A stretch of 64,000 nt of DNA from OCS116 cluster bacterium AG-430-B22 (GCA_003209955.1 QCOD01000007.1:2208-66207); one strand, 5' to 3'. Shown: positions 10,116 through 27,024, counted from the stretch's first letter. Translations and numbers: made by a program. The notes: generated from the letters alone by a model not told the origin.

Positions 10116-10117
10116 AA

Positions 10118-10408: not shown

Positions 10409-10484
10409 GGGCCCGTAGCTCAGTAGGTAGAGCACCTCCCTTTTAAGGAGATTGTCACAGGTTCGATCCCTGTCGGGCTCACCA
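10409..10484 (+). tRNA. tRNA-Lys (anticodon UUU)
   Basis: Folded by hand into a cloverleaf: acceptor GGGCCCG/CGGGCUC, D arm GCTC/GAGC, anticodon loop CTTTTAA, T arm ACAGG-TTCGATC-CCTGT, encoded CCA. Confidence 0.88.
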
Positions 10485-10618
10485 TCCTTAAACCAAGGTC
10501 AGCCTTATTTTTAAGAGATTTTCCACTCAAATTATATTAATCTATTTTTTAAGTTGTGCCAAAAAAAATTTGTACTAGGTGAAAAAAGTATTACTCTTTG
10601 GTTAACAAGGAGGAACTT

Positions 10619-10690
10619 ATGAAAAAGGTTTTATTATGTTTAGTTATCGCCGTAATGATTACTGGTAGTGGGAATAGTTTAAGGAACTAA
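10619..10690 (+). CDS. 23-codon hydrophobic micro-ORF (MKKVLLCLVIAVMITGSGNSLRN); a leader peptide or a truncated signal-peptide remnant
   Basis: Strong RBS AAGGAGGAA 4 nt before the ATG. Ends 8 nt before the TauE start. Its first ~60 nt are about 76% identical to the start of the gene at 13457. Confidence 0.4.
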   Translation: MKKVLLCLVIAVMITGSGNSLRN

Positions 10691-10698
10691 TAAGTTAA

Positions 10699-11445
10699 AT
10701 GAGCGGAACAATAACTCTTTTAATTATTCTTCTTGCTACTCTAAGTACAGCATTTTTGTCGTCAATTTTTGGAATGTTAGGCGGCCTCATTTTAATGGGT
10801 GCATTGATTACTATAATGCCTGTAAGTCAGGCAATGGTCTTACATGGATTAATTCAATTAACATCAAATGGTTATCGAGCATGGCTTAATAAAACAGATA
10901 TTAAATGGAATATTGTTTCTACATTAATTATTGGTAATATTATCTCACTAGTTGGTTTATTCTCATTAGCTTTTGTACCTGATAAAATAACTGTACTTTT
11001 AGTACTAGGTTTATTGCCATACATAGCTTGGGCGCTTCCTAAAAATAACTCCTTAGATGTAAGCAAAAAACCAATTGGTATTTTAGCTGGCATGGTGGTG
11101 GTGGGCAGTAATCTTCTATCTGGTACAGGAGGCCCTTTATTAGATATTTTTTTCCAGCGAGTAAATATGACTCGCTATCAGGTTGTTGCAACCAAAGCTT
11201 TAGCTCAAAGTTTAGGCCATATATCTAAGATAATATTTTTTGGTTTTCTTACAACATCTAAATTTAATACTTGGCCAAGTTTTTGGCTAATTTTTTTTGC
11301 TGTGATAGCTTCTGGTATCGGAACTACTTTAGGAAAAATAATATTAGATAAAATTGACGATAGAACCTTCTTTGTATGGACACAAAGCATCTTACTAACT
11401 ATTGGTGCTGTGTTTATAGCCTATGCACTCTATCTAATGAAATGA
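10699..11445 (+). CDS. TauE/SafE (TSUP) family sulfite/organosulfonate exporter-like membrane protein
   Basis: 248 aa, about 8 TM helices, with internally duplicated glycine-rich helices (GMLGGLILMGAL, GTGGPLLDIFF) typical of DUF81/TSUP. Confidence 0.75.
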   Translation: MSGTITLLIILLATLSTAFLSSIFGMLGGLILMGALITIMPVSQAMVLHGLIQLTSNGYRAWLNKTDIKWNIVSTLIIGNIISLVGLFSLAFVPDKITVLLVLGLLPYIAWALPKNNSLDVSKKPIGILAGMVVVGSNLLSGTGGPLLDIFFQRVNMTRYQVVATKALAQSLGHISKIIFFGFLTTSKFNTWPSFWLIFFAVIASGIGTTLGKIILDKIDDRTFFVWTQSILLTIGAVFIAYALYLMK

Positions 11446-11490
11446 GTCTTAGAAAGTCTTAAAATTCTATTGAAGCAATATTGAATTCCC

Positions 11491-12168
11491 TCACTGATCA
11501 CCATCACACATCACATCAAGCAAAACACCGTTAGGTGTACCAGCTGTTGCATACATCCATACATTATCGCTTTTCTCAGATAACTCTACTTCCTCGCCAT
11601 CACCCATGAGACCTGAATAACCAAAGATACGAACTGGTCTGGCTCTAACTTTTTCGCAGTCTATTTCAAAATACATGCTTAGAGATCTGAAATCTGTTCC
11701 TTGTGTTGAGGTATCTTGCATCGTAATGACATATTTATTGTCATTACGCTCAAAGTAACTTTTGGTATCGACATAATATTTGATGCCAACATCCGTCTCT
11801 GCATAGAGCTCCCAATTTGGTGTATAGATATCTGTTTTAATCTTTAAATTATATTCTTCACTTACACTTTCAATACCACCAATATTTGTTGTATTTGTAT
11901 AGCCAAGTTCATCTAAGATTACTTTTGCTCTACCTGATCGATTACCGCTTCTACAATACAATAAAATTTCTTCATCTTTTAAAATTGCATAATTTTCGAT
12001 ATCTTTTTTAATCTCGGATAAGGGAATATGAATAGCACCTTCTATATAACCGGCTCTCCATTCTTCATCAGTTCTAACATCTATCATTACAGAATAAGCA
12101 TTCCCACTCATCACAACTGCTAAGACTAATGCTATAAGTATTTTATTTTTTATCTTGGCGCGTTTCAT
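11491..12168 (-). CDS. Secreted rhodanese-domain sulfurtransferase fused to a C-terminal domain of ~110 aa with unknown function
   Basis: Signal peptide. Rhodanese core IDVRTDEEWRAGYIEGAIHIP with active-site loop CRSGNRSG. The C-terminal half (YYVDTKSY...EIDCEK...MCDGDQ) resembles surface-adhesin-E-like domains by pattern only. Confidence 0.8.
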   Translation of the reverse strand: MKRAKIKNKILIALVLAVVMSGNAYSVMIDVRTDEEWRAGYIEGAIHIPLSEIKKDIENYAILKDEEILLYCRSGNRSGRAKVILDELGYTNTTNIGGIESVSEEYNLKIKTDIYTPNWELYAETDVGIKYYVDTKSYFERNDNKYVITMQDTSTQGTDFRSLSMYFEIDCEKVRARPVRIFGYSGLMGDGEEVELSEKSDNVWMYATAGTPNGVLLDVMCDGDQ

Positions 12169-12271
12169 AAGCTTCTTTTTTCTTTAAATATTCTTCTTCA
12201 GATAGCGCATGCCATCCTATACAATTTTCAATTGGTGATCTTCCGCATCCACATTTAGGTACTTCGTTCAT
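12143..12271 (-). CDS. 42-aa Cys3His micro-protein with a CDGSH-like motif (MNEVPKCGCGRSPIENCIGWHALSEEEYLKKKEAYETRQDKK)
   Basis: Hand-translated; not in the ORF track. CGCGRS-x4-C-x-G-x-H is close to the CDGSH 2Fe-2S signature. Overlaps the rhodanese start by 26 nt. Weak RBS. Confidence 0.4.
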   Translation of the reverse strand: MNEVPKCGCGRSPIENCIGWHALSEEEYLKKKEAYETRQDKK

Positions 12272-12437
12272 TTTATATAACCCCGTGTTTTTCTTCTATA
12301 TATTTTAATGCTTCATCTGACATTTAATTAACCCTAACTTTTTGAACTATAACATAAATAAATAAACCTGTGACAATGTTGTTTTAATAACTTACGCTGG
12401 AAGTTAAAAGTTTAATATTTTCAACATGGAGGTGTTT

Positions 12438-13430
12438 ATGAAGAAAATTTTATTAAGTTTTGTAATATCCTTAATGATTGTCGATATTTCTATTGCTAAT
12501 CTTACTGAAAGAGAAAAATTTGATAGTTTATCAAAGGAAATATCTAATTGGGGTAGATGGGGAGAGAATGACCAACTTGGAACATTAAACAATATTTCTG
12601 ATATAAGTATAATTAAAGCAAGAAAATTAGTTATTGAAGGAAAAACAATTTCTTTATCAAGAAATATGTCAAAAGATTCAAATCCTTTTAATCATGCACC
12701 AATTAAACATGAGCCTTTTATTTTTCCTAAGGATGCTTTTGGAGCTGATCCTGCTCTCGCTCAGGAAGGGGCTGGTGATATTTTTGAAATAGAATATCAT
12801 GGATATTCTCATACACATCTAGACGCAGTAAATCATTTTGGAAGAGATGGCAAAATGTATAATGGTTATCCTTTTGAAATAAACTCTAACAATGAATTTG
12901 AAAATCTAGGAGTTGATGAAATAGGAAAATCAGGAATAGTTGGAAGAGGTATTTTAATTGATTTACCTATTTTTTTTGGAGTTGATTATGTTGAGGCTGG
13001 AACTGCAATTACAATTGAGGATATTAAAAAATGGGAAGAAAAAAATAATATAAAAATTGGTAAAGGAGATATTTTGCTTCTTAGGACAGGCAGATGGGAA
13101 CAGTTGCGTCAAAAAGGATATTGGGAGATTACAAAAAAAATTACAGGATTTCATTATTCTGTTGCTTCTTTTTTAAAGGAAAGAGATGTAGCTGTAATTG
13201 GTTGCGATGGTGTATCAGATGTTTACCCTTCAGGCATTGAAAGTAAAAAAGATGCTTTGCATGAGCTAGTTTTGGTAGATTTAGGTATGCCTATTTTTGA
13301 TAATATGGATCTTGATGAATTATCTACTCATTTAGACGAGCTAGGTAGAAAAACCTTCATGTTTGTTGCAAATCCTTTGAAAATAAAAGGAGCTACAGGT
13401 GCTCCAATTAATCCAGTAGCAATATATTAA
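12438..13430 (+). CDS. Putative cyclase family protein (kynurenine-formamidase-like fold), secreted
   Basis: NWGRWGENDQLGTLN, the HxxxH region (HGYSHTHLDAVNHF) and a GCDG motif. GGAGG RBS 5 nt before the ATG at 12438. Signal peptide. Paralog at 30715. Confidence 0.8.
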   Translation: MKKILLSFVISLMIVDISIANLTEREKFDSLSKEISNWGRWGENDQLGTLNNISDISIIKARKLVIEGKTISLSRNMSKDSNPFNHAPIKHEPFIFPKDAFGADPALAQEGAGDIFEIEYHGYSHTHLDAVNHFGRDGKMYNGYPFEINSNNEFENLGVDEIGKSGIVGRGILIDLPIFFGVDYVEAGTAITIEDIKKWEEKNNIKIGKGDILLLRTGRWEQLRQKGYWEITKKITGFHYSVASFLKERDVAVIGCDGVSDVYPSGIESKKDALHELVLVDLGMPIFDNMDLDELSTHLDELGRKTFMFVANPLKIKGATGAPINPVAIY

Positions 13431-13456
13431 ACAAGATAATTAAATATGAGGAACTA

Positions 13457-13900
13457 ATGAGGAAATTTTTATTAATTTTAGTTATCACCATAATGATGAC
13501 AGAAAGTATCTATGCATGCAAAACACCTGAAGAACTAATGGATAATTATTTTAATGATTTTAGTTCAGGTGATATAAAAAAAGTTGAAAGAAATTATTCT
13601 TTTCCATTATTCGTTATTCAAAATGGCAATAAAACCATTCACGATGAAATCTCAACTTTTTTAGATTTTAAAGAAATTAAAAAAACTGGATGGAAAGAGT
13701 CGGTTATTAATTCAGTAATGATTATTATAAAAAAAGATAAATCAGCTGTTACACAAGTGAATTTTTCAAGAGTTAATAACAGAGGTAATGTATATTTAAC
13801 AACAGATGCAAATTATATTCTTATAAAAGAAGATGAAGATTGGTACATCTCAGGAGTAATTATTGATAGCGATGTTCCGCTTGGTATAGAAAATAATTAA
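13457..13900 (+). CDS. Secreted hypothetical protein, possibly NTF2-like fold
   Basis: Signal peptide MRKFLLILVITIMM. About 125-aa mature domain with an alpha+beta cone-like pattern (NYFNDFSSGD... WYISGVI). Function unsupported. Confidence 0.55.
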   Translation: MRKFLLILVITIMMTESIYACKTPEELMDNYFNDFSSGDIKKVERNYSFPLFVIQNGNKTIHDEISTFLDFKEIKKTGWKESVINSVMIIIKKDKSAVTQVNFSRVNNRGNVYLTTDANYILIKEDEDWYISGVIIDSDVPLGIENN

Positions 13901-13912
13901 TAAGAGGAACTT

Positions 13913-14029
13913 GTGAAGAAAGCTTTATTAGGTTTAGTCATTGTAATAATTATGGCACTATTATTATTATTTTTTGGTAATTGGCTGGACGAACTAAAAC
14001 ATCTAATTAATGTCAATCATGTTCACTAA
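13913..14029 (+). CDS. 38-codon membrane-anchored micro-ORF, GTG start (VKKALLGLVIVIIMALLLLFFGNWLDELKHLINVNHVH)
   Basis: AGAGGAACTT-GTG matches the RBS/start context of the 10619 and 13457 ORFs, and the first 15 codons are homologous to them. Confidence 0.4.
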   Translation: MKKALLGLVIVIIMALLLLFFGNWLDELKHLINVNHVH

Positions 14030-14055
14030 TTTTACCTTTATTATTGGAGGGTATA

Positions 14056-14304
14056 ATGAATTTATCTATAGAACTAACAGCTTATCCATTGGAAGATAAA
14101 TATCTTCCAGTAATAGAAAAATATATTGAACATTTAAGAGGTTATAAAAAAATTAAGTTAGAAGTTTTTCCGACTTGTTCAGTATTATTTGGTAAACATG
14201 ATGATGTTATGGAAGCATTAAGCTTATCAATCAAGTGGAGTGTTGAGAATAAAAATAAAGTTGTCTTTATATCTAAATTTTTACCAAATTATGAAGCAAT
14301 ATAA
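14056..14304 (+). CDS. Small MTH1187/YkoF-like (DUF77) family protein
   Basis: 82 aa. N-terminal pattern LSIELTAYPL...YIEHL...EVFPTCSVLFGKHDDVMEAL resembles the family. GGAGG RBS before the ATG at 14056. Confidence 0.45.
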   Translation: MNLSIELTAYPLEDKYLPVIEKYIEHLRGYKKIKLEVFPTCSVLFGKHDDVMEALSLSIKWSVENKNKVVFISKFLPNYEAI

Positions 14305-14315
14305 AGGAGAATAAC

Positions 14316-14666
14316 ATGAAAGGCGCTAAGGAAGTTATTAAAACATTCTGGAAAATCCAAGATGAAGGTGATTATACAAAGGTAGTAAAACTATTCGCAG
14401 AAGATGCTGTTTTACTTGATCCTTTTTTTGGGATATTTGAGGGTAAAGAAGCAATTGGTAAATTTATGAAAAAGATGAACAAAGAAATGACCTCAAGGGA
14501 AACAAGTTTTGTTGTACGTGAAATAGATGGAGGAGGGGATGTTGCTTGGGCACAATGGACTGCCAAAACTCCAAATGGTGATATAGAGGGTTGTGGTTTG
14601 TATAAAGTGAAGAATGGATTGATGACTTATTATAAGGATTATATGAATGCACCTAAGGAGAATTAA
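14316..14666 (+). CDS. SnoaL-like / NTF2 family protein
   Basis: 116 aa. FWKIQDEGDY..LFAEDAVLLDPFFGIFEGKEAIGKF is a typical SnoaL N-terminal pattern. AGGAG RBS. Confidence 0.75.
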   Translation: MKGAKEVIKTFWKIQDEGDYTKVVKLFAEDAVLLDPFFGIFEGKEAIGKFMKKMNKEMTSRETSFVVREIDGGGDVAWAQWTAKTPNGDIEGCGLYKVKNGLMTYYKDYMNAPKEN

Positions 14667-14755
14667 ATATACCCCTAAATAAATTTAATTAAACAAATAC
14701 TATCTTTAATTAGATTTTTATCCTATAAGCTTTTTAAATTTTAAGGAGATTAAAT

Positions 14756-14974
14756 ATGCCATCAGGTAAAGTTAAATGGTTTAATGCTAATAAAGGTTTT
14801 GGATTTATTGAAAATGATGAAGGTGGAGACGATGTATTCGTACATATTTCTGCTGTTCAAGAATCAGGATTAGGAACTCTAAATGATAACGATCATATAA
14901 ATTTTGAGATTGTTGAAAATAGAGGAAAAAACGCTGCTGCTAATCTAACAAGAGTAGAAACTAGCGACGAATAA
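14756..14974 (+). CDS. Cold-shock protein (CspA family)
   Basis: [15 protein letters not shown] (RNP1) and VFVHISAV (RNP2) motifs, 72 aa. AAGGAG RBS. Confidence 0.95.
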
Positions 14975-15080
14975 AACAAAATAATATAGCTAACTTTAAG
15001 AATACATTAAAATTTCAATCACTATCGGACTTACCTCCTAAAATAAATGTCAGTCAAAAGTGCTTTTACTGGAAAATTCT

Positions 15081-15419
15081 ATGAATCAATTATCAGATAT
15101 AGCTGAAGCTATCCGTAATTATAAATTAAATGCAGAAGGAGGCTATGAAGAATGGGCAAAAGTTCCATGTTCTGAAGATTATAGAATGTATGTTCCTTCA
15201 ATGGGTTTTGATGTTACTGGAGCTGATGAAGTAAAGGAAGTGATCTTTGGTTGGTTAACCGACATTGAAGCAAGGCAAGAATTAGTAAATATCATTGAAT
15301 TTGAAAACACAGTTACGACATTTCTTCATATTTCAAATAAAAATGGAGAAATATTAAATATTGTTGAAGTCTTTAAAATTGATGATGAAGGAAGGGTATT
15401 TGAAATTTGGGCGCTTTAA
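15081..15419 (+). CDS. NTF2/SnoaL-like family protein
   Basis: 112 aa from the ATG at 15081. C-terminal IVEVFKIDDEGRVFEIWAL is typical of the fold. Stop shared with the convergent gene (TTAA). Confidence 0.55.
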   Translation: MNQLSDIAEAIRNYKLNAEGGYEEWAKVPCSEDYRMYVPSMGFDVTGADEVKEVIFGWLTDIEARQELVNIIEFENTVTTFLHISNKNGEILNIVEVFKIDDEGRVFEIWAL

Positions 15420-15763
15420 TTATTCTTCCGTTTTAAATGCATTTTAAATAAATAATATGCAATTGGCTCATAAAATATATTCATTATAAATATACAAAAT
15501 CTGTTTTCTAAGAAAAAAGCTAACCATTTAAAACCTTGAGTATTTTTCCAAATTAAAATAAAAGCTGCTGCACCTACATATTCAATTCCATTTTGATAAG
15601 CGTACATTCTTCTATTGTATTTATCCTCTAGTAGTGAGGAGTCATTGTATTTAATTCCCTCAGATCTTGATTTGTAGATTTCTATCTCTCTTTTGCATAC
15701 AGGACAGGTATCATTATAATAAACATCAATTGCATTTTTTTCTCTAACCTTGTTTGTTTTCAT
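15416..15763 (-). CDS. DCC-family thiol-disulfide oxidoreductase (DUF393)
   Basis: N-terminal VYYNDTCPVCKREI (CxxC), 115 aa, hydrophobic C-terminal half as in the DCC1/DUF393 family. Confidence 0.7.
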   Translation of the reverse strand: MKTNKVREKNAIDVYYNDTCPVCKREIEIYKSRSEGIKYNDSSLLEDKYNRRMYAYQNGIEYVGAAAFILIWKNTQGFKWLAFFLENRFCIFIMNIFYEPIAYYLFKMHLKRKNN

Positions 15764-15869
15764 CTTTGTCTTCTTGTAATAAAACTTTTTTCAATAGTTT
15801 GTATTCTTCGCTATCTTCACCTAATGTTTTCTTGAAATACTCTAATGCTCTTTCTGTTTTATCAGTCAT
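15744..15869 (-). CDS. 41-aa hydrophilic micro-ORF (MTDKTERALEYFKKTLGEDSEEYKLLKKVLLQEDKDENKQG) overlapping the DCC gene start
   Basis: Hand-translated. 20-nt overlap with the downstream gene. No clear RBS. Confidence 0.25.
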   Translation of the reverse strand: MTDKTERALEYFKKTLGEDSEEYKLLKKVLLQEDKDENKQG

Positions 15870-15940
15870 TAAGTTAATATTTATAATGTTTAGAATATTT
15901 AAATCTAGTAATTATTGACAAAATTAGCTAATAGATTGTT

Positions 15941-16027
15941 ATGAAAAACTTTTATAGAAATCCTTGTGATTGCTGTACTGCAGATTGCAGTTGTAATTGC
16001 AGTTGTTGTAATTGCAGTTGTTGTTAG
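15941..16027 (+). CDS. 28-aa cysteine-rich peptide MKNFYRNPCDCCTADCSCNCSCCNCSCC (13 Cys); candidate metallothionein-like peptide or RiPP precursor
   Basis: Hand-translated. In-frame TAG 9 nt upstream. Contains an in-frame 15-nt tandem repeat. No SD and no clear promoter. Confidence 0.4.
   Translation: MKNFYRNPCDCCTADCSCNCSCCNCSCC
15983..16024 (+). repeat. Tandem repeat AATTGCAGTTGTTGT x2 preceded by the partial copy GATTGCAGTTGT
   Basis: Read directly. The 15-nt period equals 5 codons (NCSCC). Confidence 0.9.
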
Positions 16028-16033
16028 CTTTAA

Positions 16034-16056
16034 TTTATAAATAATAAATTTATAAA
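16034..16056. terminator. AT-only palindromic pair TTTATAAA-taataaa-TTTATAAA between convergent micro-ORFs
   Basis: The self-complementary octamer occurs twice, allowing an 8-bp A/T stem with a 7-nt loop. Weak energetically, so terminator function is speculative. Confidence 0.2.
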
Positions 16057-16059
16057 CTT

Positions 16060-16173
16060 TCATTTACTGCTTTTTTTTCCAAATAATTTTAATACTATCA
16101 TAGTTATGATTAATATTATTGGAACTGCGCCAAGTTTCAAAATATGAATTATGCCTTCAAATAAGTTTTCCAT
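16060..16173 (-). CDS. 37-aa single-TM micro-ORF (MENLFEGIIHILKLGAVPIILIITMIVLKLFGKKSSK)
   Basis: Hand-translated. One TM helix followed by a basic tail. Weak RBS. Confidence 0.3.
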   Translation of the reverse strand: MENLFEGIIHILKLGAVPIILIITMIVLKLFGKKSSK

Positions 16174-16249
16174 TTCATTTCTTTATTTTAGAGAATATAA
16201 ATAAATACATTATAAGAACAATGTTTTTTAAAATTAAAAGGGTGTTTTG

Positions 16250-16549
16250 ATGAGAAATATAATTATAAGTGTTTTTTTAACATTATTATTGAGTGTAGCA
16301 AGTTATGCTCAGTATAAAGAACCAAAATTAAGAAATAATCTTAATATTTATAAAAAAGAGAGAGAAAGTAAGAAAATTGCAATATCGATTAAAGATGAAT
16401 GTAAGTACTTAGAGTTAAATGCAATTAATCTTATTAAAGAAGCTTATTTATTAAATATTAATAACAAAAAAATAGTTTCAGATAAGGAAATGAAATTAAT
16501 AAAGGATGCACATTATTTTTCTGTTAATTGGTCATCATTTTGTGATTAA
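16250..16549 (+). CDS. Secreted hypothetical protein (99 aa)
   Basis: Signal peptide MRNIIISVFLTLLLSVASYA. Two Cys in the mature part. No family recognised. Confidence 0.55.
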   Translation: MRNIIISVFLTLLLSVASYAQYKEPKLRNNLNIYKKERESKKIAISIKDECKYLELNAINLIKEAYLLNINNKKIVSDKEMKLIKDAHYFSVNWSSFCD

Positions 16550-16555
16550 ATATCT

Positions 16556-16741
16556 ATGAAGAAAATAAAAAAATATATATTAAATTTAAATTATACTCAA
16601 ATTTCTATTATTATTGCTTATATCATTAATATGTTGGTTCCTCATGATTTGCTTAATATGACATCAGGTAGCTCTAATTTTTGGACCGGGCTGATATTAA
16701 TAGTTTTATTTTTACTTTTTAAAGAGAGAAAGGAAAGCTAG
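16556..16741 (+). CDS. Small membrane protein (61 aa, 2 predicted TM)
   Basis: From the ORF track. Hydrophobic segments. 1-nt gap to the next gene. Confidence 0.4.
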   Translation: MKKIKKYILNLNYTQISIIIAYIINMLVPHDLLNMTSGSSNFWTGLILIVLFLLFKERKES

Positions 16742-16742
16742 A

Positions 16743-17756
16743 ATGAAGAATTCGTATATAAATGAAAAAGTAGTTCTTTCCAAATATCCATCAGGAATTG
16801 CAAAAAAAGAAAACTTCAGCGTAATAAAAGAGGATATTAATAATATTAGTAAAAATGATTTACTTATTAAGACTAAATTTATAGGTCTTGATGCAGCTTT
16901 AAGGTTATTAATTCGTGATAGCGATGAATTTCTATTTAGAGTCAAAGAGAATGATATTTTACACGGTAATATTGTTGGTGAAGTTGTAGAAAGTAATAAT
17001 TCAGATTTTCAAATTGGGGATTATGTTGTTGGGTCTCTTGGGATTCAAACATATGCTATCTCAGATGGAAATGGTATTGAGAAGGTTGATGTAAATTTTG
17101 CTCCCCCTGAGTATTGGTTAGGAGGCATGGGCATTCCTGGTTTAACTGCATATTATGCGCTTTTAGATATATGTAAACCAACTGTAGATAAGAATGTTCT
17201 TATTACTGGAGCGGCAGGAGCAGTTGGCTCTATTGCAGGTCAAATTGCTAAAATATGTGGTTCTAAAGTATTTGGAACAACCAGCAGTCAAGAAAAATGT
17301 AATTGGTTAATCAATGAACTGGGCTATGATTATGCCTTTAATTACAATGATAACGATTGGTTTTTAAAACTTAAAGATGCTTCTGAAGGAAAACTAGATA
17401 TTATTTTTGACAATTCTGGCGGTGAAGTCATGAATCAGTCTTTAAAAATAATTGGAATGAATGGCATTGTATTATTATGTGGCTCTACTTCACAATATTA
17501 TGAAGACGAAATGAAGGGGCCGAGTAATTATATTTGGCTAGGAACTATGAGAGCAAGGTTACAGGGATTTGTAATTTTTGATTATGAAAATCGATATAAT
17601 GAAGCAAGACTTAATCTAGCAAAATGGCTAAAAGAGGATAAAATTAAAATGCCAAACTATATTATCCAGAGTTCTATTGACTCTTTTCCTTCTGCTTTTG
17701 AAGATTTGTTTTCCGGAAAGAATTTTGGGAAAATGATATTAAAGTTAAATGATTAA
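16743..17756 (+). CDS. NADP-dependent oxidoreductase, MDR superfamily (alkenal/one reductase, YncB/CurA-like)
   Basis: 337 aa. GAAGAVGSIAGQIAKICGSKVFG Rossmann motif, no catalytic Zn ligands. Overall layout resembles the leukotriene-B4 dehydrogenase/YncB subgroup. Confidence 0.8.
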   Translation: MKNSYINEKVVLSKYPSGIAKKENFSVIKEDINNISKNDLLIKTKFIGLDAALRLLIRDSDEFLFRVKENDILHGNIVGEVVESNNSDFQIGDYVVGSLGIQTYAISDGNGIEKVDVNFAPPEYWLGGMGIPGLTAYYALLDICKPTVDKNVLITGAAGAVGSIAGQIAKICGSKVFGTTSSQEKCNWLINELGYDYAFNYNDNDWFLKLKDASEGKLDIIFDNSGGEVMNQSLKIIGMNGIVLLCGSTSQYYEDEMKGPSNYIWLGTMRARLQGFVIFDYENRYNEARLNLAKWLKEDKIKMPNYIIQSSIDSFPSAFEDLFSGKNFGKMILKLND

Positions 17757-17844
17757 AAATATTTTAAGAGCTATTTTTCCTGTTTTTGTTTTAATTCTCT
17801 TCTTATTGTTAATTTTATATATAAATGGTTTAGTAAAAGAATAG
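17749..17844 (+). CDS. 31-aa hydrophobic micro-ORF (MIKNILRAIFPVFVLILFLLLILYINGLVKE)
   Basis: Hand-translated. The ATG overlaps the stop region of the oxidoreductase gene. Could arise by chance in T-rich DNA. Confidence 0.2.
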   Translation: MIKNILRAIFPVFVLILFLLLILYINGLVKE

Positions 17845-17863
17845 TTAAAAATTTGGAGAAATT

Positions 17864-18646
17864 ATGAAGAAATTATTTTTATTTTTGTTTTTATCATTTT
17901 TAATAAATGGTCATGCAAGTTCACATAGCTTATTAGAGTCTGTTAATAGTGATCATAGAATTGAAAAAAATACTCTGAGAGACAAATATAGAAACCCTTA
18001 TGAAACACTATCTTTTTTTAGAATTGAACCTGAAATGACTATAGTTGAACTTTCTCCTGGTAGAGGTTGGTATACAGAGATTTTAGCTAAGTTTATGTAT
18101 GACAAGGGTAGATATATTGTCGCTCCATACAATCCAAATTTAGGTGGGTATGCAGAACGATTATGGAAAAGCTATAATGAGTTTCTTAAGAGTAATGAGG
18201 TTTATAGCAAAGTTGAAACAACATTTTTATTTGATAAATTAGCTGAAGATAACAGTGTTGATGCGGTTTTAACTTTTAGAAATGTACATAATTGGATTAA
18301 CAATAATGACGAAAATGCAAAAAAAATATTTAAACAATCTTTTTCAGCCTTACGATCTGGTGGTTATTTGGGAATTGTTGAGCATAGGGCAAAGAAAGAA
18401 ACTTCTTTTGAGGATATGTATAAATCTGGCTATATGACAGAAAAATTTGTTATTGATCTTGCTAAAAAATCAGGTTTTTTACTTATCGATAAATCAGAGA
18501 TAAATTCAAATAGTAAAGATTTAAAAAACTATCCTAAGGGAGTATGGACTTTACCTCCATCATTGAGACTTAAAGACGAAGATAAAAGTAAATATCTTGA
18601 AATAGGTGAAAGTGATAGGATGACTTTATTATTTCAAAAGCCTTAA
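17864..18646 (+). CDS. Secreted class I SAM-dependent methyltransferase-like protein
   Basis: Signal peptide. VELSPGRGWYTEIL (motif I-like) and GGYLGIVEH. Resembles the predicted periplasmic methyltransferase family. Confidence 0.65.
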   Translation: MKKLFLFLFLSFLINGHASSHSLLESVNSDHRIEKNTLRDKYRNPYETLSFFRIEPEMTIVELSPGRGWYTEILAKFMYDKGRYIVAPYNPNLGGYAERLWKSYNEFLKSNEVYSKVETTFLFDKLAEDNSVDAVLTFRNVHNWINNNDENAKKIFKQSFSALRSGGYLGIVEHRAKKETSFEDMYKSGYMTEKFVIDLAKKSGFLLIDKSEINSNSKDLKNYPKGVWTLPPSLRLKDEDKSKYLEIGESDRMTLLFQKP

Positions 18647-18664
18647 TTTTTTTTATTAAAGTTA

Positions 18665-18736
18665 ATGAAGAGATTGATAATATTTTTAATACTCTTATTA
18701 TTAATATTCTCAATTATTTTTAAGAGGGTATTTTAA
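18665..18736 (+). CDS. 23-aa hydrophobic micro-ORF (MKRLIIFLILLLLIFSIIFKRVF)
   Basis: Hand-translated. TAATG stop/start overlap with the next gene. Could arise by chance. Confidence 0.2.
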   Translation: MKRLIIFLILLLLIFSIIFKRVF

Positions 18737-19227
18737 TGAAAAAGCTTTTTTTAACATTTTTTTTTGGATTTATAATGGCAGTAAATTTTAATGCACAAAC
18801 TCAAGACCTAGATACATATGATAGAATAAAAATTGTAGAAAATATGAATAAATATGCAATAGGTATAGATACTAAAAATTATGAGTTATTTAGATCAATT
18901 TTTTTAGATGATGTGGAAGTTACAGTTATTTATGACCCTAATTGGAAGGGCGGAGAAGAAGTAAAATTTAATGGAAAAGAAAGCTGGGTTAAGTATGTTG
19001 AAGAAGCCATAAGTCAATATAGAGCTACTCAGCACATGCTTGGTAACCCAATGATTACTTTTGATGGTGAAATTGCAATTGTAAGAACCGATTTACAAGC
19101 ATCCCATTATTATATTAAAGATCCAGAAGCCAAGACTACCTTATGGGGTTTTTATGAAACACATATGGTAAAAAAGGAAAATTGGAAAATAATTAAACAC
19201 ACTTTAACAAGCATAGGTTCAGAATAA
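18736..19227 (+). CDS. SnoaL_4-type NTF2-like protein, with signal peptide
   Basis: DRIKIVENMNKYAIGIDTKNYELFRSIFLDDVEV and ATQHMLGNP are typical of the SnoaL_4 subgroup. Confidence 0.75.
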   Translation: MKKLFLTFFFGFIMAVNFNAQTQDLDTYDRIKIVENMNKYAIGIDTKNYELFRSIFLDDVEVTVIYDPNWKGGEEVKFNGKESWVKYVEEAISQYRATQHMLGNPMITFDGEIAIVRTDLQASHYYIKDPEAKTTLWGFYETHMVKKENWKIIKHTLTSIGSE

Positions 19228-19233
19228 ATTTAT

Positions 19234-19350
19234 ATGTCTAAAAAGGATCAAAAGAAAAAACGACCAATTAGACAAAAACAAGGGACTTATGAAAGAGTTG
19301 TAGAAAGTAAAAAAAAATATAATCGAAAAAAAAGTAAAATTAATCTATAA
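19234..19350 (+). CDS. 38-aa highly basic micro-protein (MSKKDQKKKRPIRQKQGTYERVVESKKKYNRKKSKINL)
   Basis: Hand-translated. About 45% Lys/Arg. Starts 6 nt after the previous stop. Confidence 0.35.
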   Translation: MSKKDQKKKRPIRQKQGTYERVVESKKKYNRKKSKINL

Positions 19351-19373
19351 ATTCTATTTTTATAGGAGTTAAA

Positions 19374-19535
19374 ATGAATCTGTTTAATATGGCTAAAGAC
19401 CTTAAGGGTATGGAAAAAATGATGAAACCAGCACTTGAAAAATTTATGAAAGACTCTGGTTTCGTAAAAAAAGATGAATTAACAAAACTAGAAAATAAAA
19501 TTAAAGAATTAGAAGATAAAATTAATAAAATTTAA
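19374..19535 (+). CDS. 53-aa coiled-coil protein, BMFP/UbiK-like (MNLFNMAKDLKGMEKMMKPALEKFMKDSGFVKKDELTKLENKIKELEDKINKI)
   Basis: Hand-translated. AGGAG RBS 5 nt upstream. The GFVKKDEL...LE..I..LE pattern resembles UbiK/BMFP family C-termini. Confidence 0.55.
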   Translation: MNLFNMAKDLKGMEKMMKPALEKFMKDSGFVKKDELTKLENKIKELEDKINKI

Positions 19536-19940
19536 TTATATTTTTTTTAAGATACCACTAAAAGAAGCTATTATACCTTCATTATTGAAAATTTTTCCTT
19601 TTAAAAACAATAATGATTTTGTTGCTTTCGTGATTTTTCCATTTGAGAATATAATTCCTTTTTCATATGAGGCCATTAAAAATTCAGTTGAACAGCTAAT
19701 AGTTACATAATTACTTTTTGAAGTGTATTTATGTCCAATTATAAACAATGCATAATCTGCAAAACTCATTATCATCCCTCCATGTAATGAATTAATTGAA
19801 TTTATATGATGGTCTTTAAAGTCAAAAGCGGCAATAGGTTTATCATCTTCAATCTTAAAATAGAAAGGACCAACAAAATTTTCATAAGGTTCTTCTACAT
19901 GCCATGTTTGAAAATTTTTTAAATCTTCTGATTTCTTCAT
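19536..19940 (-). CDS. PaaI-family hotdog-fold thioesterase
   Basis: 134 aa with the HGGMIMSFADYAL motif. Abuts the convergent 53-aa gene with no gap. Confidence 0.8.
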   Translation of the reverse strand: MKKSEDLKNFQTWHVEEPYENFVGPFYFKIEDDKPIAAFDFKDHHINSINSLHGGMIMSFADYALFIIGHKYTSKSNYVTISCSTEFLMASYEKGIIFSNGKITKATKSLLFLKGKIFNNEGIIASFSGILKKI

Positions 19941-20000
19941 TTTGTTACCTATAAGTAAATTTACATATAATCAATTTTTATTTATCATAAGATTAAATAT

Positions 20001-20534
20001 ATGGAGAAAAATGAAATTATGACAGATGAAAATCAACTATCTTCAGAAGAAATTAAAAAACTAAGAAACCTTATTGATACAGAAGAAATTAAAAAACTAA
20101 GGCTTAAATATTCATATCATATGGATGCAAGGGAGCTAGATGAACTAATGAATGTTTTTGCAGATGGTGCAGTGTGTGGATATGGTCCATATGGTGATTG
20201 GGAAGGCAAGGAGACTATATACAACAACTATAAGGAAACCTTTAAAGACACAATTGATACACCTTTTGTGAGCATGCATGTTAATACAAATCATTTAGTT
20301 GAAATCACTGGTCCAGATACAGCAAAAGGTAGAGTATATCTTTTGGACGTAATAACTAAAAATATGGATGGATCTGATATCGAAGAAGGTAAAAGTAATT
20401 TTTTATGGTTTGCTTTATATGATGAGGAATATGTCAAAATTAATGATGAATGGAAGGTTAAGAGAATGGATTTGCATTTCTTCTGGCCAGAAAGACATAT
20501 TGCTAAAGACTTTTCAACTAAGTTTTTATTATAA
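20001..20534 (+). CDS. SnoaL_4-type NTF2-like protein with a duplicated N-terminal heptad segment
   Basis: IKKLRLKYSYHMDARELDELMNVFADGAV and WKVKRMDLHF. The start is ambiguous (ATG at 20001 or 20019). Confidence 0.7.
   Translation: MEKNEIMTDENQLSSEEIKKLRNLIDTEEIKKLRLKYSYHMDARELDELMNVFADGAVCGYGPYGDWEGKETIYNNYKETFKDTIDTPFVSMHVNTNHLVEITGPDTAKGRVYLLDVITKNMDGSDIEEGKSNFLWFALYDEEYVKINDEWKVKRMDLHFFWPERHIAKDFSTKFLL
20044..20101 (+). repeat. 22-nt perfect direct repeat CAGAAGAAATTAAAAAACTAAG at a 36-nt (12-codon) spacing
   Basis: Read directly. Gives the EEIKKLR...EEIKKLR duplication in the encoded protein. Confidence 0.85.
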
Positions 20535-20535
20535 A

Positions 20536-21105
20536 ATGATTAAATTATTCCATAAAATATTATTTTTCTTTTTATTCAATTTTATAATTCAGACAAATTC
20601 TTATGCTTTTATAACAGTATTGGGTAAAGGCGATGCATCATTATGTTTTCAGTCAGCCAAAACTGGCACAGGTGGTGTAACAGCTGTTAACACATGTCTT
20701 TCAGCTATTAATGATGTTGGTTTAACTCAGAAAGATTTATATGCCACATATGTTAATTTAGGAATAATTTATAATAATTCTAAAAAACCTGATAACGCTA
20801 TAAAATATTTAAATAAAGGTCTTGAATACAAAAATACAATCCCTGAATCACTCTTAAGCCTTGGTAATAGCTTTTATTTAAAAAAAAATTATAAAAAAGC
20901 TATTGAGCTATACGATCAATCATTAGATAAAGGGCTAAATGATGTATCAGCAGTATATTTTAACAAGGGTTTAGTATACGAGAGATTACGAAATGTCGAT
21001 TTAGCACTTCAATTCTATAAGAAAGCTATTGAATTAAAACCTCAATATTACGATTATTTTGAAAAAAGAGCCCGACTTCAGAAGTCCGGTGAGTGGTTAA
21101 ATTAA
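20536..21105 (+). CDS. Secreted tetratricopeptide (TPR) repeat protein
   Basis: Signal peptide from the ATG at 20536; the track ORF at 20368 overlaps the upstream gene. TPR-like repeats (NLGIIYNNSKKPDNAIKYLNKGLE; YFNKGLVYERLRNVDLALQFYKKAIELKP). Confidence 0.8.
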   Translation: MIKLFHKILFFFLFNFIIQTNSYAFITVLGKGDASLCFQSAKTGTGGVTAVNTCLSAINDVGLTQKDLYATYVNLGIIYNNSKKPDNAIKYLNKGLEYKNTIPESLLSLGNSFYLKKNYKKAIELYDQSLDKGLNDVSAVYFNKGLVYERLRNVDLALQFYKKAIELKPQYYDYFEKRARLQKSGEWLN

Positions 21106-21109
21106 ATAA

Positions 21110-21226
21110 ATGATAAAGTTCTTAGCAGGAATCTTGTTTGGGATAATTTTGTCAATTTATTTTCAAAAAGATATAACCAGTTTGATAAATAGTTTAGATA
21201 AAATCCTTAATTTTTTTACAAATTAG
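21110..21226 (+). CDS. 38-aa micro-ORF with an N-terminal TM helix (MIKFLAGILFGIILSIYFQKDITSLINSLDKILNFFTN)
   Basis: Hand-translated. Starts 4 nt after the TPR gene stop. Confidence 0.3.
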   Translation: MIKFLAGILFGIILSIYFQKDITSLINSLDKILNFFTN

Positions 21227-21230
21227 TTAG

Positions 21231-21974
21231 TTAAAACTCGTAACCAATTTTAAATCCATATATTGAATTCTTTTTATCTGTTCCAATTGGGGGAGATGAG
21301 TCATGAATATATTCATAATTAATATTAATAAAAAAACTGTCTGTCGCTTTTACTCTTAAGCCTAATCTTAATAGTGATCTTATTTCAGATAAATCCTCAA
21401 TATCCGGTTGAAAATATATTAATGTATTAAATGATGTATTTTCCGAGATATTAAATAAATAATTTAAGTAAGTATTAATTCTAACTGTATTTCGTTCATC
21501 AAGATCAATTCTTTTTTCATTTTCATCAAATACGCCAACTCCAAGTCTTAAATTTTTTAAGGGACTTAGCCTGATACCTATTCCAAATAGATTTCTCTCT
21601 TCAATTTTTTCTAGAGGCTTCTCATTTGTTTGAATAAAGAATTCTGTTGCTATTAATGATGTAATTTCTCTAGCAAATCTTATATGAAAAAATGTATTAT
21701 CTTCATTTACTCTTTCATCTTTTTCTCTTCTAGAATAATTAAATATTAGGAATCTATTCCATACTTCATTATTAAAATCAAATCTTGTTCCAATTGAATA
21801 ATTTGTTCTATCGACTGTTCCACTTGATCCATCAAAGCCAAGATTAAGCGATATCTTAGTTCCAATTAAATCTTCTTTACGAGATGTTTCTATGTCAATA
21901 ATTTGACTCTCCAAGGTAATGCTAAAGATAATAAAAGATAAAAATGTTAAAAATTTTGTATTATTAAAATTCAT
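21231..21974 (-). CDS. Outer-membrane beta-barrel protein (DUF481/YdiY-like)
   Basis: Signal peptide, alternating-hydrophobic beta strands, C-terminal beta-signal GFKIGYEF. ATGA overlap with the upstream MscS gene. Confidence 0.65.
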   Translation of the reverse strand: MNFNNTKFLTFLSFIIFSITLESQIIDIETSRKEDLIGTKISLNLGFDGSSGTVDRTNYSIGTRFDFNNEVWNRFLIFNYSRREKDERVNEDNTFFHIRFAREITSLIATEFFIQTNEKPLEKIEERNLFGIGIRLSPLKNLRLGVGVFDENEKRIDLDERNTVRINTYLNYLFNISENTSFNTLIYFQPDIEDLSEIRSLLRLGLRVKATDSFFININYEYIHDSSPPIGTDKKNSIYGFKIGYEF

Positions 21975-22954
21975 TTTATATTTTCTTTAATGTAGATATC
22001 TCTTTGTGGAAAAGGAATTTCAATATTATTTTCTTTAAACTTATTCCATATATCAAACATTACTTCACTTTGAGGTCCAAATCTTCCTTCATCTACATCG
22101 CCAATCCAAAAATGAAGTAAAAAATTAACGGAGCTATCAGCAAATTCTCTCAAAAAACAATTTGGTTTTGGATCTTTGAGTGTTCTTGGATGCTCTAATG
22201 CAGCCTCCAATATTAGTTTTTTTACTAAATCGAGATCAGATGAATAAGCAACACCAATGGTTATTTCTATTCTCGAGTCAGTATCTGAATGTGTATAATT
22301 TATGACTTTACTTGTAATGAGATCTTCATTTGGGACCATAACCTCTTTGCCATCAAAAGTTCTTATTCTTGAGTTCCTTTGCCCAGTATTTTTAAGAGTA
22401 CCTAAAGTTCCATCATTTAATTGAATAATATCTTCATTTTCTATTGTGTTATCAAAAAGGAGAATAATACCGCTTACATAATTAGATATAATTTTTTGTA
22501 ATCCAAATCCAATCCCTACTACCAGAGCAGAAGTTAGGAATGCTAAACTTGATAAATCTACACCAAGTATATTTAGGCCAATAATAATAAATAAAATAAA
22601 CAAAAATATCTTAGATATTAAAGAGATCCTATTGATTGTATTTGAATTAAATATTGTGGAATTTAATTTTGAAAGTTTATTTATGCCTTTATCAGCCAAA
22701 TCAATCACAAAACCAGTTATTGAAAAGAAGGCTGTTGAAAGTAAAAGAAATCTTATCCCATCGTAAACAGTGTAATTATCTTCATTAATTGTTATTGATA
22801 ATGTCTCAGAGTCTAGAACATTTTTAATTGGCTGAAGAAATAAAAGATTATCTAATGAAAATAAAATTAATAACGAAAATACTAAAATGGAAATAGCCAA
22901 AAATAATCTTGGTATAAAGATAGCAAGAATTAATCTTTGAAAAAAAGTTTTCAT
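21971..22954 (-). CDS. Mechanosensitive ion channel family protein (MscS-like)
   Basis: VGIGFGLQKIISNYVSGIILLFD pore-helix motif followed by a beta domain (RIRTFDGKEVMVPNEDL). Confidence 0.88.
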   Translation of the reverse strand: MKTFFQRLILAIFIPRLFLAISILVFSLLILFSLDNLLFLQPIKNVLDSETLSITINEDNYTVYDGIRFLLLSTAFFSITGFVIDLADKGINKLSKLNSTIFNSNTINRISLISKIFLFILFIIIGLNILGVDLSSLAFLTSALVVGIGFGLQKIISNYVSGIILLFDNTIENEDIIQLNDGTLGTLKNTGQRNSRIRTFDGKEVMVPNEDLITSKVINYTHSDTDSRIEITIGVAYSSDLDLVKKLILEAALEHPRTLKDPKPNCFLREFADSSVNFLLHFWIGDVDEGRFGPQSEVMFDIWNKFKENNIEIPFPQRDIYIKENIK

Positions 22955-23071
22955 TTAAATTTAATTATCAGATTCGCAGTATTTATTTATTATTATTATT
23001 ATATTAGTGTTAAAAAAATATCTGCTATTATTAAGTAGACTGATAGAATATTAACAATTGGAGTAATTATT

Positions 23072-23425
23072 ATGGAAAACACTGATATTATTATTACCGC
23101 TACATTTGATGTAGATCCAAATGAATTGGATGATTTAATGGCGAAATGTAAACCACTTATAGATGGGGCCCTTGAAGAGGAGGGTTGTCAAGATTATAGT
23201 TGGACTTTAGATCCATATGTTCCTGGACGTATATGGGTAATGGAAAGATGGGAAAGTGAAGAATCATTAAAAAAACACTTTGAAGATGAGTGGTATAAAA
23301 ATATGGGCGCTACCTTGAATGAAGTAGGTCTTTTGAATGCTTTCTCAGCAAAATATAAAATAGTAAAACAGGAACCTGTTTATGATGATTCAGGAACTCC
23401 AAGAGCTGATTTTTTTAGTAATTAA
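23072..23425 (+). CDS. ABM (antibiotic biosynthesis monooxygenase)-fold protein, YgiN-like
   Basis: 117 aa. EGCQDYSWTLDP...WVMERWESEESLKKHF is typical of the ABM domain. Confidence 0.7.
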   Translation: MENTDIIITATFDVDPNELDDLMAKCKPLIDGALEEEGCQDYSWTLDPYVPGRIWVMERWESEESLKKHFEDEWYKNMGATLNEVGLLNAFSAKYKIVKQEPVYDDSGTPRADFFSN

Positions 23426-23461
23426 TTAAAATAATAAGAAATAAATTATAGGAAAAAAGAT

Positions 23462-23920
23462 ATGAGTGATGATTATGCAATTAGACAATTAGTGGAAAAA
23501 TACGCCGATGCCGTAAATAGAGTTGATAAAGATGATTGGGGTTCTACTTGGTGTGAAGATTCAGAATGGGATTTAAGTAGTATGCCTGCTGTAAAAGGAA
23601 AAGATGCTATTGTTGAGCTATGGGTTAATGCTATGGCCGGTTTTCCTTTTGTTGCCCAGTTAATTCAAAATGGGACAACTGAAATTAATGGTGATACAGC
23701 AACTGGTAGATGGTATATAGTTGAGCACATACAAACTACAGAGAAAGACTCTGAAGGAAATCCTGTAGGTTTTTTTAATGTTGGAGTTTATCAAGATAAA
23801 TATATTAAAGAAAATGGTAAATGGTTATTTAAATTAAGAAAATATGCTGTTCTTTATAATGATAATGGAACAGGAAATATGACTGGAACTGCCAATCCTT
23901 ACCCTGAATTAATAAAATAA
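23462..23920 (+). CDS. SnoaL_4-type NTF2-like protein
   Basis: IRQLVEKYADAVNRVDKDDWGSTW and GKWLFKLRKY patterns, 152 aa. Confidence 0.75.
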   Translation: MSDDYAIRQLVEKYADAVNRVDKDDWGSTWCEDSEWDLSSMPAVKGKDAIVELWVNAMAGFPFVAQLIQNGTTEINGDTATGRWYIVEHIQTTEKDSEGNPVGFFNVGVYQDKYIKENGKWLFKLRKYAVLYNDNGTGNMTGTANPYPELIK

Positions 23921-23956
23921 TACGATGAGATAGCTCTTAAAGATAAAAAAATAAAG

Positions 23957-27015: not shown

Positions 27016-27024
27016 GAGATTGTT

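Follow-up and report, generated by a model that had tools for sequence, protein, structure and literature searches.

A hypervariable tRNA-Lys islet adjoins a conserved core segment with SnoaL_4 genes in a marine PS1-clade alphaproteobacterium

Does a dense run of small NTF2-like and other cofactor-free enzyme genes behind a tRNA gene form one pathway, one mobile island, or neither? The question is raised by positions 10485-23920 (the block) of a 64,000-nucleotide stretch of OCS116 cluster bacterium AG-430-B22 (GCA_003209955.1, QCOD01000007.1:2208-66207), which is called the window below. The window lies on contig C7 of a genome bin of ~1.24 Mb (34 contigs, 80% complete, ~30% G+C), and the source organism, a marine alphaproteobacterium with a small genome, belongs to the PS1 clade. 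An original prediction had proposed either a periplasmic or peripheral toolkit for the transformation of dissolved organic compounds or a hypervariable accessory region. Based on our comparison with related genomes, the block probably consists of two unrelated parts lying side by side, a cassette islet at the tRNA-Lys (10485-17863) and a conserved core segment with ancient SnoaL_4 genes. Genes are named here by coordinate, and comparison genomes (G), comparison loci (L) and contigs of this genome (C) carry our own numbers.

A variable islet beside a conserved core

The tgt gene was located in 40 relatives, and the DNA downstream of it was compared, gene content by tblastn and DNA by blastn. 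The order of tgt followed by this tRNA-Lys is kept in all relatives examined, and ARAGORN finds the tRNA directly before the block, as had been stated. Behind it, positions 10485-17863 are a hypervariable islet that ends at the first core gene, 17864. In comparison with G008, a genome of the same genus with a tgt gene 96% identical, three stretches are found in the window only (10648-13907, 14046-14301 and 15140-15408; blastn). A further stretch, 16770-17745, which is part of the MDR reductase gene, is missing in G002 and L015 (blastn). The same-genus genome G011 carries wholly different cargo from the tRNA to the 17864 orthologue, and G005 has the same cargo in another order, together with further genes. 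The site is empty in genus g3 (G015, G013), and the 17864 orthologue directly follows the tRNA-Lys.

The NTF2-like genes of the islet take part in this variability. Gene 13457 is present in two of the 12 same-genus genomes. Gene 14316 recurs near the tRNA-Lys, where the copies of its own genus are 87% and those of genus g2 69-72% identical, as well as on the metagenome contigs L041 and L043; it was not found near the tRNA in G011 or g3, and an exact-match search for contigs encoding its protein returned no record. Gene 15081 was found neither in G008 nor in G002. The closest named relative of its protein, with 70% identity, is labelled Luminiphilus (a gammaproteobacterial metagenome-assembled genome, MAG), which suggests either a movement of cargo between classes or a mis-binned MAG.

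Population data give the same picture. A pattern scan yielded ten metagenome contigs with the exact tRNA flank, and the eight informative ones show at least six different first cassettes. Assembly breaks are usual at population-variable sites, and in 9/18 genomes a contig end lies no more than 2.5 kb downstream of tgt, where 2.45 such cases would be expected (P ~1e-4). The cargo is also more similar between genera than its surroundings: the cyclase reaches 88% and a flavodoxin-like protein 87% cross-genus identity, versus 62% for the core gene tgt. An insertion site at the tRNA 3' end and presence/absence polymorphism among relatives, two of the marks of a tRNA-associated flexible island, are both found at this locus.

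From 17864 to ~27000, the sequence is conserved core, syntenic across genera. Positions 17746-28000 are collinear with same-genus genomes at ~90% DNA identity (blastn), and the synteny reaches to glmU, with 87-98% amino-acid identity within the genus and 49-77% across genera. The order of the core is an exported 260-aa protein, SnoaL_4 18736, a 53-aa open reading frame (ORF), PaaI, SnoaL_4 20001, TPR, DUF481, MscS, ABM, SnoaL_4 23462, an acyltransferase, a rhomboid protein and glmU. It recurs in other genera, with the exception of 18736, which is missing in G015. The adjacency of PaaI and 20001 is seen in 12/13 related loci and the ABM-23462 pair in all 13.

This last pair also has a history of its own. 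At loci L020 (MAG SP193) and L021, which belong to another lineage, it is 86-90% identical to the window, with flanking genes at 53-77%; the tree places the 23462 copy of SP193 with the genus of the window, but not its copy of 20001. The two genes of the ABM/23462 pair seem to have moved together between lineages.

It is extremely improbable that the entire 10.5-24 kb is a hypervariable accessory island acquired at the tRNA-Lys. The tRNA does stand at the start of the block, the G+C content over 13-26 kb (0.23-0.30) is slightly lower than in the flanks, and genus g2 has the segment from 20001 to glmU elsewhere, inverted, on the same contig as tgt. However, the collinearity within the genus begins at 17746, the right part is syntenic gene for gene in another genus, where it stands directly after the tRNA, and 20001 is present in 20/25 family genomes, representing all three genera. 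The proposed hypervariability therefore holds for 10485-17863 and not for 17864-23920; this right half is syntenic and conserved in relatives, which contradicts the original prediction on its own terms.

Leaders and tRNA ends as candidate anchors

A repeat search detected a 68-nt element in four copies in the window, at 10602, 12421, 13440 and 13896. It contains a leader of 50-70 nt, made up of a GGAGG-type ribosome-binding site (RBS), a start codon and the initial ~17 signal-peptide codons (MKKxLLxLVI...). The four leaders share 56-76% mutual identity. A background of 95 other signal-peptide-like starts, taken genome-wide, gives 42 +/- 8%, and the highest value reached outside the islet is 59%. 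Because this background is so much lower, generic constraints fail to explain the likeness of the leaders, and convergence of RBS and signal peptides was rejected as its origin. In the PS1 family as a whole, all strong matches to the leader (E < 1e-4) whose contig could be placed are on tRNA-Lys islet contigs.

At least six ORF types that are unrelated to each other begin with the leader. These include the PF04199 cyclase, the DUF6841-like lipoprotein, a second DUF6841-like family, the 38-aa membrane peptide and several other exported proteins. It is also found on dead stubs of 14-23 codons, among them 10619-10690, which reads MKKVLLCLVIAVMITGSGNSLRN before its stop codon and is carried by G005 too. 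For the cyclase, the leader has been swapped: the mature part is 88% identical to the copy in G019, a genome of another genus, whereas the two signal peptides cannot be aligned. In G001 and G009, the contig breaks off within the leader.

Copies of the tRNA end form a second kind of repeat. G005 carries three copies of the terminal 45 nt of tRNA-Lys, which continue into 159 nt or more of common sequence (as much as ~240 nt, as far as the leader); they bracket a GIY-YIG-like/HNH cassette and the TauE cassette. In G019, 33 nt of the tRNA 3' end occur twice, with the second copy after the first cassette. The first cassette behind the tRNA in G005 (L003 2881-5177), enclosed by two of the copies, encodes a 202-aa GIY-YIG-like and a 444-aa HNH-motif protein and resembles a unit for defence or restriction. 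At the same position, the metagenome loci L039 and L046 have diverged homologues of the HNH protein (38-58% identity).

The spacer behind the tRNA-Lys is itself conserved, its first ~55 nt being almost invariant in seven same-genus copies. After this invariant part, the spacer of G001, G002, G005 and G008 has a tandem 11-mer, GTTTCCGCAAA x2, which is shortened in the window. Such a conserved spacer with its 11-mer may be a regulatory or a recombination site. A promoter/terminator scan of 10380-14400 gave counts not above those of shuffled sequence, and for this reason no promoter is claimed for the spacer.

Put together, these repeats would fit a simple scheme. Mostly single-gene cassettes would be gained, lost and reordered between the tRNA-Lys and gene 17864, most likely by recombination at two reusable homology anchors. 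The first anchor would be the tRNA 3' end with the conserved spacer, and the second the 50-70-nt leader that heads many cassettes. In whatever form the DNA arrives, a crossover within the leader would place a new coding body behind the resident leader, and a truncated leader stub may remain. The cargo would be drawn from a pool common to the PS1 genera, with a bias to small exported or membrane proteins, two NTF2-like ones among them.

A more specific version of this scheme can be put forward tentatively. The islet would possibly serve as an integrase-less cassette-exchange slot for the exported proteome, in which the spacer, the RBS and ~17 signal-peptide codons act as a portable homology handle. 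Any body that recombines in the leader would at once be expressed and exported, and leader-bearing cassettes would circulate among PS1 genera and stack in tandem. If this is true, the slot would parallel integron cassettes, with the handle at the 5' end.

It is also conceivable, but rather unlikely, that the islet is real and that its cassettes are moved by a tRNA-targeting integrase acting in trans, as in integrative or tycheposon-like elements, with the leader as a mere signal-peptide resemblance. Direct repeats of the tRNA 3' end that bracket cassettes, as in G005 and G019, are the classical signature of integrase insertion, and the defence-like pair in the first G005 cassette is typical mobile cargo. 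On the other hand, an integrase is absent from the window block and from the islets of G005, G019 and G011 that were read by eye; the only two tyrosine recombinase genes of the genome (PF00589) are on contigs C10 and C5. The repeated unit runs for 159-240 nt through spacer and leader, which is far longer than usual att cores. The truncated stubs and the leader swap of the cyclase place breakpoints inside the leader, where MAG contigs break as well. On balance, we rate homologous exchange at the two anchors above an integrase in trans, which stays a live rival.

Several observations weigh against the interpretation of the block as an exchange islet next to an unrelated core. The comparison genomes are mostly MAGs or single-amplified genomes, so that absences and contig ends are imperfect evidence. 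The leaders in the window are just 56-76% identical, and part of this likeness could reflect descent of signal peptides in paralogous exported proteins. The window itself contains no second tRNA fragment, and the insertion mechanism therefore rests on the sister genomes. No integrase or recombinase was found in or beside the islet. Finally, three deeply diverged SnoaL_4 genes lie within a 5.2-kb stretch of the core, a clustering that two unrelated neighbours would leave unexplained.

SnoaL_4 genes and their probable chemistry

The predicted set of five confident and one possible NTF2/SnoaL-like proteins stands. Four of them exceed Pfam cut-offs: 18736, 20001 and 23462 match SnoaL_4 (PF13577, gathering cut-off 24) with 66.9, 78.2 and 84.8 bits, and 14316 matches SnoaL_2 (PF12680, cut-off 27) with 52.1 bits. 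The Pfam match of the 15081-15419 protein is sub-threshold. Its NTF2-like fold is confirmed by a confident AlphaFold (AF2) model (predicted local distance difference test, pLDDT, 95), for which the top Foldseek matches are ketosteroid isomerase and SnoaL-like structures (TMq 0.7-0.8, probability 1.0). The protein of 13457 reaches 22.8 bits against DUF6841 (PF20795, NTF2-like; cut-off 27), and 12 of 16 relatives match DUF6841 at E <= 0.01, the best at 8e-6. As its AF2 model is poor (pLDDT 52, unreliable), it is classed as a probable NTF2-like protein.

At least 14 NTF2-like genes were counted in the genome, six of them within the 13.4-kb block. In a uniform-placement simulation, six of 14 genes in 13.4 kb of 1.24 Mb gives P = 5e-6, and three SnoaL_4 genes within 5.2 kb gives P = 0.006. 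The dense concentration that had drawn attention to the block is therefore real and non-random. NTF2-like genes also form clusters on contigs C1, C5 and C3, and clustering is thus a property of the family in this genome.

It is unlikely that the density is without a meaning of its own, in the sense that a rich islet and a rich core segment happen to adjoin in a lineage in which ~1% of the genes are NTF2-like. The six block genes fall into at least five deeply diverged subfamilies with three inheritance patterns, and NTF2-like genes are abundant in all PS1 genomes, both in favour of such a chance adjacency. The two simulated P values and the clusters on the three other contigs argue against it.

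The SnoaL_4 proteins 18736, 20001 and 23462 have only 18-21% mutual identity. In a maximum-likelihood tree, each of the three groups with its own cross-genus orthologues (support 99-100), and these groups are 1.5-3 substitutions per site apart. Since each is nested among cross-genus orthologues over long branches, the three genes are neither local duplicates nor recent acquisitions, and local tandem duplication was rejected. The nearest paralogs lie on contig C1, with 41% identity both for 18736 and C1_65811, which adjoins an epoxide hydrolase gene, and for 23462 and C1_69975.

The three core genes belong to an expansion of SnoaL_4 across the PS1 family. All 25 PS1-family genomes (0.9-1.6 Mb) carry 5-14 SnoaL_4 genes, versus none in any of the 22 other alphaproteobacterial genomes of up to 2.5 Mb that were searched; similar numbers are otherwise reached by just a few genomes of 3.7-5 Mb. 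SnoaL_2 is also enriched in the family. The present genome has ten SnoaL_4 genes along with 14 Rieske oxygenase alpha genes (PF00848). A search of the literature on PS1-clade genomics and on SnoaL in bacterioplankton returned nothing relevant, and the combination of a PS1-wide SnoaL_4 expansion with 14 Rieske alpha genes in this genome appears to be undescribed in that literature. The PS1 clade is an abundant, little-studied marine lineage, and its unusually large SnoaL_4 set together with the Rieske content points to a specialised oxidation of hydrophobic or alicyclic organic matter.

Outside the block, SnoaL_4 genes keep oxidative company. Of the ten, five have a Rieske alpha gene within 3 kb, and in two cases the genes are direct neighbours: the stop of C1_69975 overlaps the start of C1_70409, and C5_86285 is 23 nt from C5_86841. 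Oxygenase-rich SnoaL_4 clusters are found at loci L034-L036, on C1 (61-84 kb), C5 (74-89 kb) and C3 (32-42 kb). Epoxide hydrolase, PhyH, P450, FAD_binding_2-family flavoprotein and ABM genes are among the neighbours, and C3 has a second adjacent SnoaL_4/ABM pair. None of the three SnoaL_4 genes in the block lies beside an oxygenase, the nearest Rieske gene being at a distance of 33 kb. Instead, 18736 is conserved together with the exported 260-aa protein, 20001 with the divergent PaaI thioesterase and 23462 with ABM.

The genome has no canonical Rieske beta subunit (PF00866), the lone match being a marginal one of 27.1 bits on a SnoaL_4 gene. It might be speculated that the SnoaL_4 proteins of group B, defined below, are beta-like partners of Rieske oxygenases; just two of the ten SnoaL_4 genes adjoin an alpha gene, and these include none from the block.

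Based on the alignment, the ten SnoaL_4 proteins can be divided in two groups. The seven members of group A, including 18736 and 20001, keep the columns of a Tyr, an Asp, a His and a second Tyr. The three members of group B, including 23462, have Asn or Ser at the Asp column (Asn in 23462) and no aligned His. Relatives in the Protein Data Bank (PDB) are BaiE, LinA, a scytalone-dehydratase-like protein and LdpA (4l8p, 3a76, 3ef8, 8abt), at ~20-25% identity, and Rv3472, which is the best match of group B. A His-Asp acid-base dyad and a Tyr oxyanion hole are used in BaiE, LinA, scytalone dehydratase and LdpA (PMC9942872). The dyad and Tyr of these NTF-2-like dehydratases and lyases are found in the alignment columns of 18736 and 20001 and not in those of 23462. 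The proteins 18736 and 20001 probably catalyse acid-base eliminations on hydrophobic substrates, which may be activated by coenzyme A (CoA). The pairing of PaaI with 20001 hints at such a CoA-activated substrate because BaiE acts on a CoA thioester (PMC9942872).

LdpA is the closest solved relative of 20001 (8abt, E = 1e-8). Its Glu143, in motif II, is essential for dehydroxylation (PMC9942872). This residue is in an insertion without counterpart in 20001 (HMMER alignment), and an LdpA orthologue was rejected.

The families named in the original prediction were matched by Pfam for ABM, the putative cyclase, the PaaI thioesterase, the MDR reductase and the DCC oxidoreductase. Their association with aromatic polyketides did not survive: it rests on family names, and the nearest relatives that have been characterised are cofactor-free dehydratases and lyases. 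The characterised members of PF04199 are presumably metal hydrolases of the kynurenine formamidase or isatin hydrolase type. As already noted, no synthase accompanies these genes, and neither KS, CLF or ACP nor any other scaffold-forming domain was detected in any ORF of 7976-27015; a polyketide tailoring cluster was rejected for this reason.

Could the whole 13 kb still be one co-inherited, partly periplasmic toolkit of cofactor-free enzymes for one class of dissolved compound? We consider this very unlikely. The density of NTF2-like genes is far above chance, and the block does contain ABM, enone reductase, thioesterase and PF04199 hydrolase-type genes. Eight block proteins have signal-peptide-like N-termini as judged by eye, in agreement with the many signal peptides reported, and SnoaL_4 genes elsewhere in the genome do sit in catabolic clusters. 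However, the block is not inherited jointly, as its left half varies gene by gene among close strains and its right half is core. Both strands are used, Csp, MscS, DUF481 and TPR genes are interleaved, and no architecture of transporter, regulator and enzyme is visible. Just two of the six NTF2-like proteins (13457 and 18736) look exported, again by eye, so that the periplasmic location applies to these and not to the other four. A toolkit for dissolved organic matter is plausible at the level of the genome, given its SnoaL_4 and Rieske alpha genes; the block itself is no functional unit. Its dense SnoaL, ABM and cyclase names mimic a pathway, yet there is none here, and the block can be separated into its flexible and core parts.

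Gene inventory and comparison with known systems

The block contains ~24 substantial ORFs from the tRNA to 23920, together with several micro-ORFs of 23-42 codons (Table 1); the ~30 short genes counted earlier are reached only if these micro-ORFs are included.

Table 1. Features of the block and its left border, with their occurrence in relatives.
Position	Strand	Feature	Basis	Relatives
10409-10484	+	tRNA-Lys(UUU), downstream of queA and tgt; left islet anchor	ARAGORN	
10485-10690	+	Post-tRNA spacer and leader copy 1 (10602-10669) on truncated 23-codon ORF (10619-10690)		
10699-11445	+	TauE/SafE-family membrane protein, islet cargo	Pfam PF01925	97% identity in G005, there bracketed by tRNA-fragment repeats; not in G008, G002
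11491-12168	-	Exported PspE-like rhodanese fused to Adhesin_E-like domain, islet cargo	Pfam, NCBIfam	G002, G004, G005, metagenome contig L038; position relative to tRNA varies
12143-12271	-	42-codon Cys-rich ORF, overlaps start of rhodanese gene, islet cargo		
12421-13430	+	Leader copy 2 and exported PF04199 'putative cyclase' family protein (ORF from 12426), islet cargo	Pfam, 72 bits	Not in G008, G002, G005
13440-13900	+	Leader copy 3 and DUF6841-like, lipoprotein-type exported protein (ORF 13457), probable NTF2-like, islet cargo		
13896-14029	+	Leader copy 4 and 38-codon small membrane peptide (GTG at 13913)	Conserved	G008, G002, G005, metagenome contig L037
14044-14304	+	82-86-aa protein, islet cargo	No Pfam or NCBIfam match	In G005; not in G008, G002
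14316-14666	+	SnoaL_2 NTF2-like protein, cytoplasmic, recurrent islet resident	Pfam PF12680	
14756-14974	+	Cold-shock protein	Pfam CSD	G008, G002, G005
15081-15419	+	112-aa NTF2-like protein, ketosteroid-isomerase-like fold, islet cargo	AF2 and Foldseek	
15416-15869	-	DCC1-like thiol-disulfide oxidoreductase (15416-15763) and 41-codon ORF	Pfam PF04134	G008, G002
16247-16741	+	Exported 100-aa protein and 61-aa membrane protein	No significant family	Pair kept in G008, G002, L015
16743-17756	+	MDR enone (CurA/PTGR1-type) reductase, single-gene indel	Pfam ADH_N_2 and ADH_zinc_N	In G008; not in G002, L015
17864-18646	+	Exported 260-aa protein, first core gene, right islet boundary	Weakly SAM-methyltransferase-like	
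18736-19227	+	Exported SnoaL_4 protein, group A	Pfam	Orthologues in G008, G011
19374-19940	+/-	53-aa coiled-coil-like ORF (+) and PaaI/4HBT hotdog thioesterase (-, 19536), PaaI divergent from 20001	Pfam, NCBIfam	
20001-20534	+	SnoaL_4 protein, group A, cytoplasmic, core	Pfam	
20530-22954	+/-	Exported TPR protein (+), DUF481 outer-membrane protein (-) and MscS channel (-), core housekeeping between SnoaL_4 genes	Pfam	Syntenic in all related loci
23072-23425	+	ABM protein	Pfam, 48 bits	
23462-23920	+	SnoaL_4 protein, group B	Pfam	

Two of the small ORFs deserve a comment. The 42-codon Cys-rich ORF at the start of the rhodanese gene recurs with 62-98% identity at no fewer than five further loci, one other genus included (L007, L008, L021, L031, L038), and is for this reason probably a real gene. 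The 38-codon ORF 13913-14029 consists of the leader, one hydrophobic helix and then GNWLDELKHLINVNHVH, with a His-rich tail, and it probably encodes a real small membrane protein. The spacer 15872-16072 has no DNA match in G008 and forms one more variable patch. Farther downstream, in the region matching ~28.8-33.4 kb of the window, relatives carry a gene distantly paralogous to that of the PF04199 cyclase (28-30% identity).

Among the larger genes, the MDR reductase reaches 266 bits with the CurA-like NCBIfam model, which is under the cut-off of that model. The protein of 17864 had been called a periplasmic methyltransferase. Its N-terminus is of the export type; neither Pfam nor NCBIfam gives a match, and the support for a methyltransferase is one weak PDB match, to the S-adenosylmethionine (SAM) methyltransferase 3dh0 (E = 0.0087, residues 42-138). 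The core acyltransferase that follows the block (23957-24823, minus strand) resembles the OlsF N-terminus and GlsA (amino-acid lipid synthesis type) in NCBIfam, with scores under the equivalog cut-offs.

The active-site columns of 18736 and 20001 (Tyr, Asp-His dyad and second Tyr) are shared with BaiE, LinA, scytalone dehydratase and LdpA. In contrast to these enzymes, 20001 has no equivalent of Glu143, 23462 has no dyad, and 18736 carries a signal peptide. At the level of the lineage, paralog expansions of oxidative enzymes are known from other oligotrophic marine bacteria, such as SAR202. The present genome is likewise that of a small-genome marine heterotroph, with its SnoaL_4 and Rieske alpha genes packed in 1.24 Mb, but both the lineage and the enzyme families are different.

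Marine flexible islands of the additive type are found next to tRNA genes in Prochlorococcus, with repeated tRNA 3' ends and tycheposon remnants, and in Alteromonas. The islet resembles them in its position at a tRNA 3' end, in cassettes that differ between close strains, in the assembly breaks, in the tRNA 3' repeats around units of sister genomes and in a cross-lineage identity of cargo above that of the core. In comparison, the islet is very small (0.2-7.4 kb), holds mostly single-gene cassettes and has no integrase in any variant seen, and its repeat unit is long (159-240 nt), with a leader of RBS and signal peptide that is partly coding. The islet may show how single genes are exchanged in streamlined genomes without dedicated mobile-element machinery.

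Another parallel is offered by the vlp, vsp and vsa loci of mycoplasmas, which encode variable surface lipoproteins and in which the 5' leader and signal peptide are conserved among the members. There, as in the islet, a conserved 5' untranslated region and signal peptide are joined to differing mature bodies at one locus. The bodies in the islet are, however, unrelated to each other (hydrolase, NTF2-like, small peptides) and form no repeat-rich antigen family, and no inversion or phase-variation machinery is evident at the islet.

Integron arrays and clusters of attC sites lacking integron integrases (CALINs) are similar in that promoterless-looking single-gene cassettes pile up at one site and are exchanged between genomes. 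No attC-type 3' sites were seen in the islet, although no search with an attC model was made. Unlike integrons and CALINs, the islet is without IntI, its shared element lies at the 5' side and is partly coding, and its cassettes are on both strands. If the leader truly is an exchange handle, the islet would represent a new variant of cassette shuffling.

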